This document shows positions 3,981 to 49,935 of a stretch of 64,000 nt of DNA, one piece after another. The DNA is from Escherichia phage FP43: the sequence record MN648445, one strand, 5' to 3'. A program made the position numbers and the translations under genes. A model generated the notes under the pieces. It was given only the letters and a program-made list of their open reading frames with translations. It was not told where the DNA came from and did no database searches. Within the stretch, counting starts at the first letter, position 1. The number at the start of each line of letters is the position of its first letter.

Positions 3981-4009
3981 GTTTACAAGGTCTATGGTTG
4001 TGTTATTAT
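3981..4009 (+). promoter_or_regulatory. T4-early-type promoter
   Basis: -35 GTTTAC, 17 bp, -10 TATTAT (TGT extended); IR AGGTCTAT/ATAGACCT brackets the -10. Confidence 0.55.
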
Positions 4010-4564: not shown

Positions 4565-4591
4565 ACGCTTTACCCAAGGACGGGTTATAAT
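4563..4591 (+). promoter_or_regulatory. middle-promoter-like element (MotA-box-like + -10)
   Basis: AAACGCTTTA then 13 nt then TATAAT; upstream of 4627 gene. Confidence 0.4.
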
Positions 4592-4626: not shown

Positions 4627-5622
4627 ATGAGCATTACATCTGATGCGGTAAAACATGAAATTAACGGTTTATGTGCTTCACAGATTAAAGTGTGGTTTAA
4701 AGACCATAACGATCGCAGAGCACTTAATTATGAGCAAATTGCTATCCAAGTTCATCAATTACTGACTAGTAAATTTGATTTTCATATGCCGTCTGAAATC
4801 TATACTAATCTGCCGCGAGCACTTATTAAAGCGTGTAAAGGTTATGGAAAATCAATGGCTGATGGAATCTTCAGCGCGCTGAATAAACTTAACGTTCTGT
4901 CGATGATTAACTCTAACAATATCCTGCGTAATCTAGGACGTACTGATTTGTTCGGTCGTGAACAGTGTAAAATGCCTTTGAAATGGATTGTTGCTCATCT
5001 TAACGAGAACCAAACACGTTTTATGGCCGTAACAGCACGTTTACAAATGGGCCTAGATCGTCAGATGAACTTTAAAACTCATCCACGTTATTCAGGTTCA
5101 ACAGACTTTTATAAATGTGAGCTTCAAAAGGTTGGTGGTAAAACTGTCTTAGTAGTTCGTGTAACGTTTGAAGGACGACGTCAAGGATATTTTGACATAA
5201 TCGGCTCTGGTCTTAAACATTGTGGATTTATCGACGAAGTTGATATCAAGCGAGACGGCATTGGATACCGTATTGGGTATGTTTGTACTCTTAAAGAAGA
5301 GATTTCAGGACCAGCTCCAGGTCTAAAAGACGTTAGATATAAAGACGAGCTCGTTGAAGAAATAAAAGAAGTTGAATATGATATCAACCAAGAAGATGCT
5401 CTTAAAGACCTTATTGATGAACTGAACCAAGATGTTATTCCTGTTCAGAAATTTGAATCAAAACATGCTGAGCAAATCAAATACTTTGAAGCTTTGATTA
5501 ACGAACTTAATGTAACTATTCAACAGACTGACGATGAAATCTCACGATTAGCAGGCTTAAACGGTAAAAATAAAACAGAACGAGCTAATCTTATTCAAGT
5601 AGTAAAACTTCTTAAGGAATGA
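4627..5622 (+). CDS. hypothetical protein with C-terminal coiled-coil
   Basis: 331 aa; heptad-like charged C-terminus; MotA-box-like promoter upstream. Confidence 0.55.
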   Translation: MSITSDAVKHEINGLCASQIKVWFKDHNDRRALNYEQIAIQVHQLLTSKFDFHMPSEIYTNLPRALIKACKGYGKSMADGIFSALNKLNVLSMINSNNILRNLGRTDLFGREQCKMPLKWIVAHLNENQTRFMAVTARLQMGLDRQMNFKTHPRYSGSTDFYKCELQKVGGKTVLVVRVTFEGRRQGYFDIIGSGLKHCGFIDEVDIKRDGIGYRIGYVCTLKEEISGPAPGLKDVRYKDELVEEIKEVEYDINQEDALKDLIDELNQDVIPVQKFESKHAEQIKYFEALINELNVTIQQTDDEISRLAGLNGKNKTERANLIQVVKLLKE

Positions 5623-5651
5623 TGTACAACCAAGGATGGTTGGAGTATAAT
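5623..5651 (+). promoter_or_regulatory. T4-early-type promoter (CCAAGGATGGTTGG family)
   Basis: TGTACA ... CCAAGGATGGTTGGAG TATAAT. Confidence 0.5.
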
Positions 5652-5677
5652 AAATTTTTCAACATGAGGAATATAAA

Positions 5678-6637
5678 ATGGCTTTTATTACACGTAGAGA
5701 ACTTATCAAAGAATTTACCTCGAACGCATATACTCCAGGACCTAATCCTATCCGTATGCCTGTAAAGACTCCTGAAGAGATTGAGGAAATCTGTTCATAT
5801 TATGGGATTACTTCTCGTATGTTTACCCAATTTGAATGCGTTACTAACACACCCGTTAAAGAGTTCATTAAAAATGGTGAGTTCAGCCGTTTATTGGCCA
5901 AACAGAAACTTCGTAATTTTTGTATTGGCGGTGAAGGTCAATATTTCGCTAAGCAGTTCCGGAATAACCTTAACAATCTGATGGCCATTGCTTCTCGTAT
6001 TCGTCCTCAAGCAATTAACATGAAACATTTGAAATATACTTACGATAAGTTAGAAATCATGGTTATCAGTGAGAACGAGTTCACTCTTACGTATAAACCT
6101 AAGAATGATAACGTTGCTCGTGTATTCCACCAAGCGTTGGAAGTTTTAGGTGATAATATCCACCAGATTAAAGCAATTTATTCTCGTGAGCTTAATATTA
6201 TCGACCCTATCAAGAATAAGGGCCATATCGCTATCCAGGCTCGTGTATCTATTAGTAAAAAGGTTCCTGCACCATGGTGGCACAAAGACTCTGAATATTA
6301 TCAAAATCTTAAAAAGGAAAATGCATTGTTTGAAGGCAATATTACAGCAACACCAGTCGGTAATGCAGAGGTTCTAGGCGCATATTCTCCAGCACAATCT
6401 GGTATGTTTAAAGGTTTGCCAAATGTGTGCAAACTGTCGACAGTAAAACTAAACGTTTCTAATGACCTTCTTCCTGCCGAAGACTACCATTATAATCAAA
6501 TCAAGGCCACTGTAGACCAACTATCCGTTGAACTTGATAAAGCACAAGCTAAGCTTCGTGATGCTCAACAGGTGGTGACCAATCTCCAGTTGCAGTACTC
6601 TAAACTTTTTAACGCAATGAATGCATTAAAATCATAA
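5678..6637 (+). CDS. hypothetical protein with C-terminal coiled-coil
   Basis: 319 aa; own promoter (TGTACAACCAAGGATGGTTGGAGTATAAT) and RBS. Confidence 0.55.
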   Translation: MAFITRRELIKEFTSNAYTPGPNPIRMPVKTPEEIEEICSYYGITSRMFTQFECVTNTPVKEFIKNGEFSRLLAKQKLRNFCIGGEGQYFAKQFRNNLNNLMAIASRIRPQAINMKHLKYTYDKLEIMVISENEFTLTYKPKNDNVARVFHQALEVLGDNIHQIKAIYSRELNIIDPIKNKGHIAIQARVSISKKVPAPWWHKDSEYYQNLKKENALFEGNITATPVGNAEVLGAYSPAQSGMFKGLPNVCKLSTVKLNVSNDLLPAEDYHYNQIKATVDQLSVELDKAQAKLRDAQQVVTNLQLQYSKLFNAMNALKS

Positions 6638-6641
6638 ATCA

Positions 6642-6671
6642 GTTTACAACCAAGGATGGTTGGAGTATAAT
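6642..6671 (+). promoter_or_regulatory. T4-early-type promoter (CCAAGGATGGTTGG family)
   Basis: GTTTACAACCAAGGATGGTTGGAGTATAAT. Confidence 0.55.
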
Positions 6672-6699
6672 GAACCTATCTTAACGAGAGGAAAATATT

Positions 6700-7647
6700 A
6701 TGACACGTTCACATTACATTGAATACTTTGCCGGTCTTATCGCTAACGCTCACGCTCAACGTGCTATTGGTGCTTGGACTGATGTTCCACATAAAGGTGT
6801 GGTTTATAGTATTCTTCGTGATTTTCTTACATACACAGGCCAAGAAAATCATATCTGTAAAGATACTCAGAATGCGTATTCTCATTCATTAGGGACCCTG
6901 CTTCAATGGTTCAAACGTTCTCGTTTATTATCTTCTACTGTAGCTCGTGATAACATCAAAAACTTTATGAAGCCGAGCTTTATTAAATCTGTGACATCTA
7001 AAACCGATTTGGTTGAATTCACTATTGTTAATGATGTTAAAAAGACTCATTTGGCTGATTGGTTATCTACCATTCCTGAAACTAAATTTGCTGATAAATT
7101 TGCTTATGAATTCAATAACCAAGTGAATATGCTTTTTAAACATTCTCGTAAATTATTCACGGGCGGTGATGGTCGTACAAATAAAGTTCATGTTAAAGAT
7201 TGGGTTACTGCAGTATTCAAACCAACAGGTAATGGTAACGCATCATTGTCAATTGATATCCAGGTTCCTTATTACTACTCACGTAATCTCGGTACCATGA
7301 AAGCCGAAGAAATTAATAAGCACAACAAAACTATTCGTTCGTTGTCTTATAAACTTATTACATTGTTAGAGACTATGGATGTTGTTGAAACGTTCGACGA
7401 ATCCGAAGATAACGGTTCAATGTTATACAGTTCTCGCACCCGAATTAAGCTGAAGAACCCTAACGAGTATAAACTTAAGACTATTAAAGAACCTAAAGTA
7501 GAAAAAGTTGACAACTTGAGCGAAGAACGTGAATATCTCAAATCTCGTCTGAAAGAAGTCGAAGCCCAGATTAAAGAACAGACTAAATCGTTAAAAGCTC
7601 TGAATGCGAAAGCGGACGGTTTACGAAATGCCATTGAGGTGTTATAA
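6700..7647 (+). CDS. hypothetical protein with C-terminal coiled-coil
   Basis: 315 aa; same promoter type as 5678 gene; RBS GAGAGG. Confidence 0.55.
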   Translation: MTRSHYIEYFAGLIANAHAQRAIGAWTDVPHKGVVYSILRDFLTYTGQENHICKDTQNAYSHSLGTLLQWFKRSRLLSSTVARDNIKNFMKPSFIKSVTSKTDLVEFTIVNDVKKTHLADWLSTIPETKFADKFAYEFNNQVNMLFKHSRKLFTGGDGRTNKVHVKDWVTAVFKPTGNGNASLSIDIQVPYYYSRNLGTMKAEEINKHNKTIRSLSYKLITLLETMDVVETFDESEDNGSMLYSSRTRIKLKNPNEYKLKTIKEPKVEKVDNLSEEREYLKSRLKEVEAQIKEQTKSLKALNAKADGLRNAIEVL

Positions 7648-7952
7648 TGAACCTACGTCTTCTAGAGGATATTGATATGAGCACTAATCATGGCTTAGTT
7701 AAGTTTATTGATGATAGTTCAAAGATTGAATTTGTCCAGCGAGATAAAATTCATGGTGAAGAAGAGTTCGTTCCTCCAGCATGGAACGAAATAATGAAAA
7801 TGGTTGAACGACGTGAAAATGCTGCCAAATCGGCAGCAAAACATCCGTGTCCGGAATGTGGAACTATCCAAGTCCAACTGGTTAACTGGACCAGTGATAA
7901 CTTGAAATTGAAATGCCGTAAATGCTTCCACAAATTTGAGAGAACATTATAA
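7647..7952 (+). CDS. zinc-ribbon protein
   Basis: 101 aa; CPEC...CRKC cysteine pairs; TAATG overlap with upstream gene. Confidence 0.5.
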   Translation: MNLRLLEDIDMSTNHGLVKFIDDSSKIEFVQRDKIHGEEEFVPPAWNEIMKMVERRENAAKSAAKHPCPECGTIQVQLVNWTSDNLKLKCRKCFHKFERTL

Positions 7953-8365
7953 TGAGATATAGCCTTCGTTGTTTTATTGCAGCTTTAGTTTTTGCCATTA
8001 TTCCATTCATTTGGAACAGCCAGAATACTTACATGGAAACTAAAGTAATTCCTGTGGAGGTAGTGGAATTAATCTCAGGCCAATCTACAGGAAAATATTC
8101 TAAATTAGAATTTATTGCAGTCTATAAAGACGAGCAAGGACGAGTTTTTGACAGACGTGTATCACCGTCGTTTTATACGCTTCTGAATAAAGGTGATACG
8201 ATAGCTATAGAAATTCGTGAGATGGATATCAAACAAACTACTAAAGATAACTTGATTTGGTTCTTTGGTACAGTGTTGTTGGTTTCTATCTGTATCACAG
8301 GTTTTATTACATGTATTGTATTTGGCATTGCATATTTAATCGATGAAAGGAAAAATAATGTTTAA
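7952..8365 (+). CDS. membrane protein
   Basis: 137 aa; hydrophobic N- and C-terminal helices. Confidence 0.5.
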   Translation: MRYSLRCFIAALVFAIIPFIWNSQNTYMETKVIPVEVVELISGQSTGKYSKLEFIAVYKDEQGRVFDRRVSPSFYTLLNKGDTIAIEIREMDIKQTTKDNLIWFFGTVLLVSICITGFITCIVFGIAYLIDERKNNV

Positions 8366-47750: not shown

Positions 47751-48428
47751 ATGAGCACTGATGTTATTATAGATTTTGAAACATTCGGCAATACGTCAAA
47801 AGCTGCTGTTATTGACCTTGCGGTTATTGCATATAATTCGGACCCTGAAATTGTTGAATCATTCGAAGAACTTGTTCAACGAGGTAAGCGAATTAAATTT
47901 AATTTAGCTTCTCAGAAAGGGAAGCGAGTTTTCGCTAAATCCACTATGAAATGGTGGAAAGAACAATCAGCAGAAGCACGTAAAAACCTGGCCCCGTCTG
48001 AAGACGATGTCACTACGCTTGAAGGCGTTAAAATCTTTTTAGATTATTGTCGAGCTAATAAAGTTGACCAATGGAAATCACAGATGTGGTGCCGTGGTAT
48101 GAGCTTTGACTTCCCGATATTGGTCGATTTGATTCGTGACCTCTATCGTGATGAAGGTGTTCTTGAACCAGATATTGATACCGATAAATTAGAACCGGTT
48201 AAATTCTGGGCTCAACGCGATATTCGTACGGCAATCGAAGCTTACTCGTTGACACGAGGATTAAGTATGTGTCCATTACCGATGGGTACGCTAAAAGGAT
48301 TCGTTGCCCATGATAGTATTCACGATTGTGCTAAAGATATTTTGATGTTAAAATATGCTCAGCGTTATGCGCTTGGCCTTGAAGATGTCCCTGAGAATCC
48401 TGACCCGTTAAGTGTAAAACAGCGATAA
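47751..48428 (+). CDS. dexA: exonuclease A (DnaQ-like 3'-5' exonuclease)
   Basis: 225 aa; N-terminal IDFETFG exo motif; syntenic after dda. Confidence 0.8.
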   Translation: MSTDVIIDFETFGNTSKAAVIDLAVIAYNSDPEIVESFEELVQRGKRIKFNLASQKGKRVFAKSTMKWWKEQSAEARKNLAPSEDDVTTLEGVKIFLDYCRANKVDQWKSQMWCRGMSFDFPILVDLIRDLYRDEGVLEPDIDTDKLEPVKFWAQRDIRTAIEAYSLTRGLSMCPLPMGTLKGFVAHDSIHDCAKDILMLKYAQRYALGLEDVPENPDPLSVKQR

Positions 48429-48433
48429 AAACA

Positions 48434-48463
48434 GTTTACAACCAAGGATGGTTGGAGTATAAT
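48434..48463 (+). promoter_or_regulatory. T4-early-type promoter (CCAAGGATGGTTGG family)
   Basis: GTTTACAACCAAGGATGGTTGGAGTATAAT. Confidence 0.55.
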
Positions 48464-48493: not shown

Positions 48494-48988
48494 ATGAATA
48501 TCAATACCACGGCTACTTACATCCTGAAAGATGAAAAACAAATCAACTGGTACGGTGCTTCAGTGCGAGCTTATGAAAAGTTTTGTGAAATTTTAGGTGC
48601 CACTCAAGGTAATAGTTTCACTATTGTTAACTTCATCAAACAAGTTGAAGGCCCTTGGTTATTCTTAGAAATTAAAAATTCATATGGTACAATTTCTACT
48701 ACCGCCCTTCCAAGCACCGACTTTGAACTGTTGATTGAAGAAGTAGAACCCGTTAAAGATATCTGTATTGATATGGATATCGCTTGTATGTACGGTACTC
48801 TGATTAAGCCTATTGAGCCTACTGATTTGTTGTGTAAATATGTTTCAATTCGACGTCCGTTCGCAGGTCCAGTAAATGGATGGGTAACTGACCAATGGAT
48901 TGAAGACGGTGTTGAACTTCTGAACGTTGTTCATGCAGGTGATTTTAGTGTAGTTCCACGTAGTGCTGTGGTTAATATCCTTAATTAA
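48494..48988 (+). CDS. hypothetical protein, paralog family member 1 of 3
   Basis: C-terminal GWVTDQWIEDGVELLNVVHAGDFSVVP shared with the next two genes. Confidence 0.5.
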   Translation: MNINTTATYILKDEKQINWYGASVRAYEKFCEILGATQGNSFTIVNFIKQVEGPWLFLEIKNSYGTISTTALPSTDFELLIEEVEPVKDICIDMDIACMYGTLIKPIEPTDLLCKYVSIRRPFAGPVNGWVTDQWIEDGVELLNVVHAGDFSVVPRSAVVNILN

Positions 48989-48992
48989 TGTT

Positions 48993-49020
48993 GTACATCC
49001 AAGGACGGATGGAGTATAAT
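48993..49020 (+). promoter_or_regulatory. T4-early-type promoter (CCAAGGA family variant)
   Basis: TGTACATCCAAGGACGGATGGAGTATAAT. Confidence 0.5.
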
Positions 49021-49050
49021 GAATTCAATTTAAACAAAGAGAGAGAAATT

Positions 49051-49506
49051 ATGATTACTATTGGTGAAATTAAGCGTGTATCGTCTGCATCTCGTTCTAA
49101 AGCTGCAGGTCGTCTAGTTGAAGTGGTAGGACTTCGTACTAATGGTACTGGACGTGTTAAAGAAGTTAAAGTTCGAATCATTCCTAGTTCTGGAAAAACT
49201 GAAACTCAGTACGCTTACGTAAGTCCTAAATTCTTGGAAACTCATGTGAGCGCTCATTTTGCTTCTACTGAACCTAATGTACAGTTCAAATGGGCCCTTT
49301 GCAAAGGCGTTGAATTCCGGACTGATAAAGAATTTGATTTCATCGACGAATATGGTTATCCAAACAAAACTGATATTATGTGCGGCTTCATCAGTGACCA
49401 ATGGGTTGAAGATGGTGAAAAGTTATACAATATCGTATTCTTAGGTGACTTCCGAGTTGTTAAAGAATCTGAAATCACTCGCTATGTGTCTCCTCGTAAA
49501 GCTTAA
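49051..49506 (+). CDS. hypothetical protein, paralog family member 2 of 3
   Basis: C-terminal GFISDQWVEDGEKLYNIVFLGDFRVV. Confidence 0.5.
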   Translation: MITIGEIKRVSSASRSKAAGRLVEVVGLRTNGTGRVKEVKVRIIPSSGKTETQYAYVSPKFLETHVSAHFASTEPNVQFKWALCKGVEFRTDKEFDFIDEYGYPNKTDIMCGFISDQWVEDGEKLYNIVFLGDFRVVKESEITRYVSPRKA

Positions 49507-49515
49507 GGAATTATT

Positions 49516-49935
49516 ATGAATATTGTAAATCTCTCTACAGGTGATTACGTATATGTATCTGTTGCTTCTCGCTCTAAAGTTGCCGGGAAGTTGGTTGAAG
49601 TTCTTTCTGTGAGTGATCCGGTTTTTGGTCGTAACCAAGTTAAAGTTCGTGATGCTAATGGTAATATTGGCTACGTCTCAAGCCAGTTCATTGAGCCAGA
49701 AGAAAAAGCGTTCAAATGGGGACTATGCAGATCAGTTTCTGTTGAAAAAGACCATGAATTCACTATTGCTGCGGCAACTGATGGAACGCCATGGAAAACT
49801 AAGCAAATCGCCGGATTTATTAGCGACCGTTGGGTAGAAGATGGTGTTAAGCTTTATAACATCGTTTTCGCTGGTCAGTTCATGGTAGTTCCTGAATTCC
49901 AAATTAAAAAATATAGCCCAGCTGCTTTCGCATAA
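49516..49935 (+). CDS. hypothetical protein, paralog family member 3 of 3
   Basis: C-terminal GFISDRWVEDGVKLYNIVFAGQFMVVP. Confidence 0.5.
   Translation: MNIVNLSTGDYVYVSVASRSKVAGKLVEVLSVSDPVFGRNQVKVRDANGNIGYVSSQFIEPEEKAFKWGLCRSVSVEKDHEFTIAAATDGTPWKTKQIAGFISDRWVEDGVKLYNIVFAGQFMVVPEFQIKKYSPAAFA

Follow-up and report, generated by a model that had tools for sequence, protein, structure and literature searches.

The window analysed here is a 64,000-nt stretch of Escherichia phage FP43 DNA (MN648445), and the genes of interest are three consecutive open reading frames (ORFs) for proteins of ~320 aa, namely nrdC.6, nrdC.5, and an NrdC.3-type gene (Table 1). The region that holds them shares ~97% DNA identity with RB69-like Mosigvirus phages (Straboviridae, Tevenvirinae) and is collinear with the T4 segment nrdC.11 – nrdC – 49 – nrdD. 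We consider it fairly probable that these are the RB69-type counterparts of T4 nrdC.6, nrdC.5, and nrdC.3, and that they encode fast-evolving counter-defence paralogs in an array of cassettes separated by promoter-early stem-loop (PeSL) elements. The original prediction had placed the three reading frames exactly and had proposed a diversifying family in which a common C-terminal oligomerisation module carries unrelated, variable heads. The idea of a family held up for NrdC.5 and the NrdC.3-type protein and less firmly for NrdC.6; the proposed distribution of conserved and variable parts did not.

Window NrdC.6 is 31-33% identical to T4-type NrdC.6 and consists of a helical N-terminal region, a beta-rich middle, a low-complexity acidic linker, and a C-terminal helix-turn-helix tail, with the secondary structure as given by a low-confidence AlphaFold2 (AF2) model. 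The second protein belongs to the DUF7235/T4 NrdC.5 family (PF23882), as its residues 15-318 match model positions 1-307 of 307 (E = 1.1e-119, 399.9 bits for a gathering cut-off of 30). By this assignment, window nrdC.5 is a divergent ortholog of T4 nrdC.5, with 24-27% identity. The third protein shares 57% identity with T4-type NrdC.3 and has only weak similarity to T4 NrdC.4. Judged by these comparisons, the gene labelled "nrdC.4" in RB69-type phages is an ortholog of T4 NrdC.3 and a paralog of T4 NrdC.4, a correction that is new here; T4-type phages have four consecutive genes of similar size (nrdC.6, nrdC.5, nrdC.4, and nrdC.3), and RB69-type phages have no NrdC.4 copy. NCBIfam and Pfam searches returned nothing informative for NrdC.6 or NrdC.3 beyond weak coiled-coil noise. 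Word-seeded homolog searches retrieved only relatives of at least 56% identity, and a pattern scan of IMG/VR gave 3 loci. Many GenBank phage records call the whole nrdC.1-nrdC.11 cluster, including these three genes, "thioredoxin". We rejected this name, as a family-library search detected no thioredoxin domain in them; the labels seem to have been carried over from the gene name nrdC during annotation.

Divergence is concentrated in this cluster, which forms a hotspot. The identities to T4 given above compare with 78-83% for the flanking NrdC.11, 78% for NrdC.10, 81-84% for NrdC.8, 92% for NrdC, 90% for gp49, and 99% for NrdD; the three genes evolve much faster than their neighbours. The RB69-type variant of NrdC.5 is confined to Mosigvirus (132 records, all at least 80% identical). 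An exhaustive HMMER search of 1.84 billion proteins found only six representatives of the NrdC.6 family at the 50%-identity level, of which three are full-length types and the remainder are truncations that retain the tail; the NrdC.6 profile could therefore not be deepened.

Table 1 Features of the nrdC.6–nrdC.3 cluster and related elements in the FP43 window
Feature	Position	Strand	Description
nrdC.6	4627-5622	+	331 aa; 98-100% identity to NrdC.6 of RB69 and relatives; phrog_2257, precomputed PF26899
nrdC.5	5678-6637	+	319 aa; Pfam DUF7235 (PF23882); phrog_2351; bracketed by two PeSL copies
NrdC.3-type gene	6700-7647	+	315 aa; phrog_1435, precomputed PF26897
NrdC.6 heptad tail	5467-5619	+	aa 281-331; heptads broken by a G-containing turn (RLAGLNGKNK)
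NrdC.5 heptad tail	6488-6634	+	aa 271-319
NrdC.3-type long helix / heptad tail	7519-7644	+	aa 274-315
PeSL copy 1	5622-5651	+	ATGTACAACCAAGGATGGTTGGAGTATAAT; weakened -35 box; stem CAACCA 5627-5632 / TGGTTG 5637-5642 in spacer; TATAAT -10
PeSL copy 2	6642-6671	+	exact GTTTACAACCAAGGATGGTTGGAGTATAAT; early-promoter consensus; spacer stem-loop 6647-6652 / 6657-6662
PeSL copy 3	48434-48463	+	exact copy; ~42 kb distant, with dexA on one side and a row of small paralogous ORFs on the other
Middle-type (MotA-box-like) promoter upstream of nrdC.6	4567-4591	+	GCTT 4567-4570, 15 nt, TATAAT 4586-4591
Early-promoter consensus	7619-7648	+	GTTTAC N18 TATAAT within the NrdC.3-type 3' end, reading into nrdC.2; same site annotated in phage SA79RD

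At the level of BLASTP, the three window proteins are as divergent as had been predicted for their N-terminal domains (pairwise E values of 0.25-4.5, not significant), and PHROGs and Pfam assign them to three separate families. We gathered orthologs from 16 loci in four genera and compared the resulting family profiles with HHalign. The NrdC.4 and NrdC.3 profiles matched at 97.9% (E = 6e-13, 214 columns) and those of NrdC.5 and NrdC.4 at 86.1% (E = 5e-6, 187 columns), while NrdC.5 matched a merged NrdC.3 plus NrdC.4 profile at 86.9% (E = 4e-6). Nine negative-control comparisons with the neighbouring NrdC.10 and NrdC.11 families, which are of similar size, all gave P values of at least 0.16. 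NrdC.3 and NrdC.4 are linked even by plain BLASTP, with E values down to 1e-8 across nearly the full length. A BLAST link between NrdC.5 and NrdC.3 was discarded, as it stems from the chimeric protein P0056. On the strength of these profile matches, which cover most of the N-terminal and central region, NrdC.5, NrdC.4, and NrdC.3 are distant paralogs from one ancestral gene; paralogy at this level is new here.

NrdC.6 may, at somewhat better than even odds, be a fourth, more remote branch of the same superfamily. Its HH alignments to NrdC.4, to NrdC.3 plus NrdC.4, and to NrdC.5 plus NrdC.4 plus NrdC.3 gave P = 0.0018-0.0035, with mutually consistent registers (position 82 of NrdC.6 corresponds to 60 of NrdC.5 and 75 of NrdC.4), and it contains two motifs in the same order as NrdC.5, NrdC.4, and NrdC.3. 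Motif 1, K..(L/F)S..hh.+..(I/L)+N(F/L), reads FSALNKLNVLSMINSNNILRNL / VKEFIKNGEFSRLLAKQKLRNF / KKTFKESRLLSYLVNRDILGNF / LQWFKRSRLLSSTVARDNIKNF in the four proteins, and motif 2, F(R/N)N(N/Q)....h..(A/H)S(R/K)h, reads NENQTRFMAVTARLQ / FRNNLNNLMAIASRIR / FRLFKGQILKSASKL / FNNQVNMLFKHSRKL.

NrdC.5, NrdC.4, and NrdC.3 have a plan in common, which NrdC.6 also shows: the N-terminal region is helical and holds the two ordered motifs, the middle is rich in beta structure, and a variable linker leads to an amphipathic helix of ~45 residues at the C-terminus. The homology signal sits in the N-terminal and central "head", where the two motifs lie and the HH alignments extend over 146-240 columns. Contrary to the module-plus-variable-heads scheme of the original prediction, conservation sits in the head and not in the tail, a distinction that profile comparison makes newly here.

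The heptad-like character of the tails was confirmed. When the last 35 residues were scored for hydrophobic a/d and polar other positions across 80 non-overlapping + strand ORFs of at least 80 aa, the three genes took ranks 1, 2, and 3 (0.59, 0.52, and 0.28; next 0.22). They are also among only 4 such ORFs ending in L..[AV][ILMV]..L, a motif defined after viewing the sequences. The tails span ~45-50 C-terminal residues with a similar h-x-x-A-h-x-h-L ending, show heptad periodicity over at least four heptads of a predicted C-terminal helix, and keep their hydrophobic a/d positions within each family despite ortholog identities of 24-57%. In the AF2 models, the NrdC.3-type protein ends in a single 41-residue helix (274-314, pLDDT (predicted local distance difference test) 64-80), and NrdC.6 in helix 281-309, a turn, and helix 316-330 at low confidence. 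Tail-to-tail HH alignments gave P = 0.006-0.16. The tails have length, position, helicity, and a loose terminal pattern in common, not a conserved sequence module; such a module was rejected by tail hidden Markov models (HMMs) built with one family left out.

AF2 was run on NrdC.6 and the NrdC.3-type protein with alignments of the window sequences and close homologs. Both models have the same order of elements: some five helices at the N-terminus come first, then the motif 2 helix at ~130-145 and a beta hairpin from ~162, and after these more beta/alpha elements and a disordered linker that leads to the terminal helix. In Foldseek searches of BFVD, each retrieved its own orthologs first; next came, for both models, one protein of Serratia phage CBH8 and one of Acinetobacter phage Acj61 (E ~1e-3); these common third-party matches may lend weak backing to a relation between NrdC.6 and NrdC.3. 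Foldseek against the PDB gave nothing below E = 0.06, and sequence-profile searches of the PDB gave nothing significant. A structure-based classification was dropped, given models with pLDDT of 48-50 and no PDB relative by sequence or fold.

Acj61 has two adjacent genes (330 and 304 aa) in the slot between nrdC and nrdC.10, with heptad tails ending in …TLNKALEIMML and …ILAKALVVSEARLNKK; the 304-aa gene is presumably the Foldseek match, being of equal length. These syntenic genes share the architecture, but their sequence-profile links were not significant and they were not accepted as family members. Elsewhere in the Acj61 locus (L013, 1229-3938, minus strand), a nicotinamide phosphoribosyltransferase gene adjoins one for ribose-phosphate pyrophosphokinase, a pair that resembles the published phage NAD+ reconstitution pathway countering NAD-depleting defences such as Dsr1.

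The number of gene copies per locus varies from 1 to 4 among the 16 loci, and partial genes occur. Phage ACG-C40 (L008, 4805-5213) retains only the first ~71 aa of NrdC.5, followed by the NrdC.3 tail, and in Pinarejo (L009, 5001-5135) the NrdC.6 tail alone remains. P0056 is an NrdC.5(146-272)::NrdC.3 chimera, and P0061 and P0062 are short ORFs with the NrdC.6 tail at their end. These five are natural deletion or fusion remnants. Swapping of heads on a conserved tail was considered and rejected, as the tail-only tblastn hits (ACG-C40 and Pinarejo) are deletion remnants and the three proteins are truncations or fusions.

Promoters were called as consensus matches; a generic sigma-70 scan of the window showed no enrichment over shuffles. 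The original prediction had given each gene its own promoter, two of them near-identical. The near-identical pair was recovered after nrdC.6 and after nrdC.5; the signal ahead of the first gene is of a different, middle type. The pair belongs to a 30-nt intergenic repeat that combines TTTACA-N17-TATAAT with a CAACCA/AGGA/TGGTTG hairpin in the spacer and occurs three times in the 64-kb window, where no copy is expected by chance. Copy 1 overlaps the nrdC.6 stop codon and differs from GTTTACAACCAAGGATGGTTGGAGTATAAT at two positions, both in the -35 box (ATGTAC). Copies 1 and 2 lie 1020 bp apart and bracket nrdC.5, and copy 3 is a potential recombination partner for them.

The published PeSLs of T4-type phages are repeated early promoters with stem-loops, located chiefly in hyperplastic regions upstream of ORFans, and they recombine with each other such that the flanked genes are deleted, inserted, or circularised (Arbiol et al. 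2010, PMC2839356; Comeau et al. 2014, PMC4122927). A natural example of such a deletion appears in phage ESCO47, which lacks nrdC.5 and has a single chimeric PeSL at the junction: its left side (TGTACA -35 box and nrdC.6 3' end) is that of copy 1, and its right side (5' untranslated region and start of the NrdC.3-type gene) is that of copy 2. As read from the sequence, this junction is the product expected of PeSL-PeSL recombination and a natural nrdC.5 deletion junction, which is new here. With this presence/absence pattern, the two near-identical promoters appear better described as PeSL recombination and regulatory cassettes.

The middle promoter upstream of nrdC.6 has also been annotated as a T4 middle promoter by another group in phage SA79RD (97.5% identity). 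It holds a short stem, ACCC 4572-4575 / GGGT 4582-4585, around an AAGGAC loop, and resembles a shortened PeSL core (TTTAC-CCAAGGA-CGGGT-TATAAT) that may now read as a middle promoter. An early-promoter-like element upstream of nrdC.8 (3981-4009; GTTTACAAGGTCTATGGTTGTGTTATTAT) has the AAGG…ATGGTTG core of the PeSL copies, which suggests a wider family of related elements in the region. Downstream, the -10 box of the 7619-7648 promoter overlaps the first ATG of the nrdC.2 ORF, at 7647, and a good ribosome-binding site (GAGGAT) precedes a second Met codon at 7677; the latter may be the true nrdC.2 start, or at least that of the transcript from this promoter. PeSL copy 3 lies just after dexA (47751-48428) and ahead of ORFs at ~48495-48988, 48988-49506, and 49516-49935. 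These three ORFs share a C-terminal motif (…DQWVEDG.KLYNIVF.GDF.VV…) and represent a second tandem paralog set in the window.

Anti-defence activity, which the original prediction had offered next to host takeover, is published for one family member. Evolved T4 clones that lack this region fail on strain ECOR17, a block traced to the SIR2 defence gene Dsr1 (PMC9391042), and T4 nrdC.5 expressed alone from a plasmid is enough for cells with Dsr1 to be infected again (Srikant et al. 2022, eLife; PMC9391042). Genes nearby also act against defence systems, nrdC.1 inhibiting Septu and gp49.2 inhibiting OLD, and T4 nrdC.3-nrdC.6 are non-essential, since they tolerate transposon insertion on the laboratory host (HIDEN-SEQ supplement). 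We favour a counter-defence role because early and middle signals, dispensability, fast divergence, cassette-like gain and loss, and the phenotypes of T4 and of neighbouring genes all point to it. By analogy with T4, window NrdC.5 would most likely inhibit a Dsr1-type SIR2 NADase or a variant of it.

In the mechanism that we propose, nrdC.3–6 would form a tandem array of one to four dispensable early or middle genes in a hyperplastic T-even region, from which homologous recombination between PeSLs could delete, or into which it could insert, whole genes along with their own promoters. The proteins would act as counter-defence factors made early in infection. The fast-evolving N-terminal and central part of each would probably bind one host immune protein, a different one for each paralog, and neutralise it. 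Self-association would probably come from the terminal helix, which as a coiled coil would increase avidity where the defence protein is itself oligomeric.

Several observations weigh against parts of this reading. With 24-27% identity to the tested T4 protein, window NrdC.5 may have a different target, and direct binding of Dsr1 by T4 NrdC.5 is an assumption, as the literature searched gave no mechanism. The PeSL stem has 6 bp and no U-tract, which makes terminator activity doubtful, and the degraded -35 box of copy 1 makes its promoter activity uncertain. The AF2 models are poor (pLDDT of 47.7 for NrdC.6 and 49.5 for the NrdC.3-type protein), and the Foldseek matches to the CBH8 and Acj61 proteins have TM-scores of 0.2-0.3. 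The leave-one-family-out tail HMMs missed the omitted family among 278 ORFs (best: rank 6, E = 0.25). Finally, an HMM of the NrdC.5, NrdC.4, and NrdC.3 motif region placed T4 NrdC.6 at E = 0.22 and window NrdC.6 outside the top 12; motif-region HMMs were set aside as confirmation of NrdC.6 membership, being not significant.

The last two results bear on whether there is a family at all. The three proteins could be unrelated ORFans of ~320 aa with generic amphipathic end helices, adjacent only through the accumulation of ORFans in a hyperplastic region, as the non-significant BLASTP pairs, the three separate PHROGs and Pfam families, the lack of cross-family detection by the tail HMMs, and the sub-threshold NrdC.6 links would allow. 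For NrdC.6 alone, such a view is plausible. For the set, it is highly unlikely: it would have to account for NrdC.5-NrdC.4 and NrdC.4-NrdC.3 profile matches of 86-98% that the controls do not approach, for a NrdC.3-NrdC.4 relation visible to plain BLASTP, for three tails that are the top three of 80 ORFs, and for the pair of neighbouring genes, alike in size and tail type, that fills the syntenic slot of the distant Acj61.

If the proteins are related, they might still serve ends other than counter-defence. They could be host-takeover factors that redirect a housekeeping machine (RNA polymerase, replisome, proteases, or metabolism), with the tail docking on that machine. Many T4 early accessory genes do target host housekeeping functions, and these genes have early or middle promoters; that no phenotype is recorded on the laboratory host is compatible with either view. 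We nevertheless regard takeover as unlikely, as the sole tested member has a defence-specific phenotype and conserved housekeeping targets are expected to drive neither identities of 24-57% between phages of the same host species nor frequent gene loss. It is also quite improbable that the proteins are subunits of one hetero-oligomeric complex joined through their C-terminal helices and not independent inhibitors. The genes are adjacent, and their terminal helices have similar lengths and endings, in line with such a complex; however, natural phages carry any subset of one to four genes, every gene is set off by a promoter or cassette boundary of its own, and plasmid-borne T4 nrdC.5 by itself makes up for the missing region on Dsr1 cells.

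Counter-defence by related, independently acting proteins is thus the account that we retain. A bolder version, which we hold to be rather doubtful, would make NrdC.3-NrdC.6 one anciently duplicated, Straboviridae-wide family of modular immune antagonists, each with a hypervariable head and a coiled coil for multimerisation, whose exchange through PeSLs shifts host range. If this were true, Acinetobacter and Serratia T4-like phages would be included, as their corresponding slot holds neighbouring genes of ~300 aa with this architecture, and NrdC.6 and NrdC.3/NrdC.4 would inhibit defence systems not yet assigned to them.

Two further features of the neighbourhood were noted. An NrdC.7-like membrane protein is encoded at 7952-8365, downstream of nrdC.2, whereas its T4-type position is between nrdC.8 and nrdC.6, which points to a local rearrangement inside the same hyperplastic region. 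An 86-aa ORF at 2203-2463, between the NrdC.11 nucleotidyltransferase and the NrdC.10 ATPase, has a signal-peptide-like N-terminus (MKKLAIGLFAVMMAFSVGA…) and no match in the T4-type loci compared.

Phage therapy against E. coli uses T-even phages as its main chassis, and which wild strains these phages can infect depends on accessory genes whose function is unknown. A family of NrdC.3, NrdC.4, and NrdC.5, perhaps joined by NrdC.6, yields a concrete hypothesis on four large genes that are annotated as hypothetical in hundreds of sequenced phages, since an anti-Dsr1 phenotype is already on record for one member. It also suggests that target specificity maps to the head and not to the tail. The ESCO47 junction would be a natural RB69-group example of the cassette mechanism proposed for RB49/phi1, a mechanism that could explain the differing gene content of this cluster among otherwise near-identical therapeutic phages.

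The NrdC.x hypothetical proteins with their Pfam DUFs, the T4 NrdC.5 phenotype, and the PeSL concept are already known. T4 NrdC.3, NrdC.4, and NrdC.6 (PF26897 and PF26899) are uncharacterised T-even accessory proteins, to which the window genes are ortholog or paralog counterparts. Like published PeSLs, the window element fits the PST/T4-type consensus TTTACW-N17-TAYWAT, and its copies lie in a hyperplastic region directly upstream of non-essential ORFs and flank a gene that is present or absent with a chimeric junction. It differs in that the CAACCA/TGGTTG stem is specific to this phage group, in having only 3 copies in 64 kb, and in being known here from sequence alone; RB69 is not mentioned in the PeSL literature searched. 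DSAD1, a protein of SPbeta-like Bacillus phages, is reported to bind a SIR2-family NADase directly and thereby to counter this defence. Its target is DSR2 and not Dsr1 and it comes from another phage group; NrdC.5 is likened to it by analogy only, not by sequence or fold. The closest parallel is T4 NrdC.5 itself. The T4 protein differs from that of the window by extra insertions of ~20 and 20-30 residues in its N-terminal half and by the low identity between them, and the anti-Dsr1 phenotype was shown for T4 alone; however, both are DUF7235 proteins of similar length with a C-terminal heptad tail, and both are encoded by an early gene, dispensable in the laboratory in the case of T4, in the slot between nrdC.6 and nrdC.4/nrdC.3.

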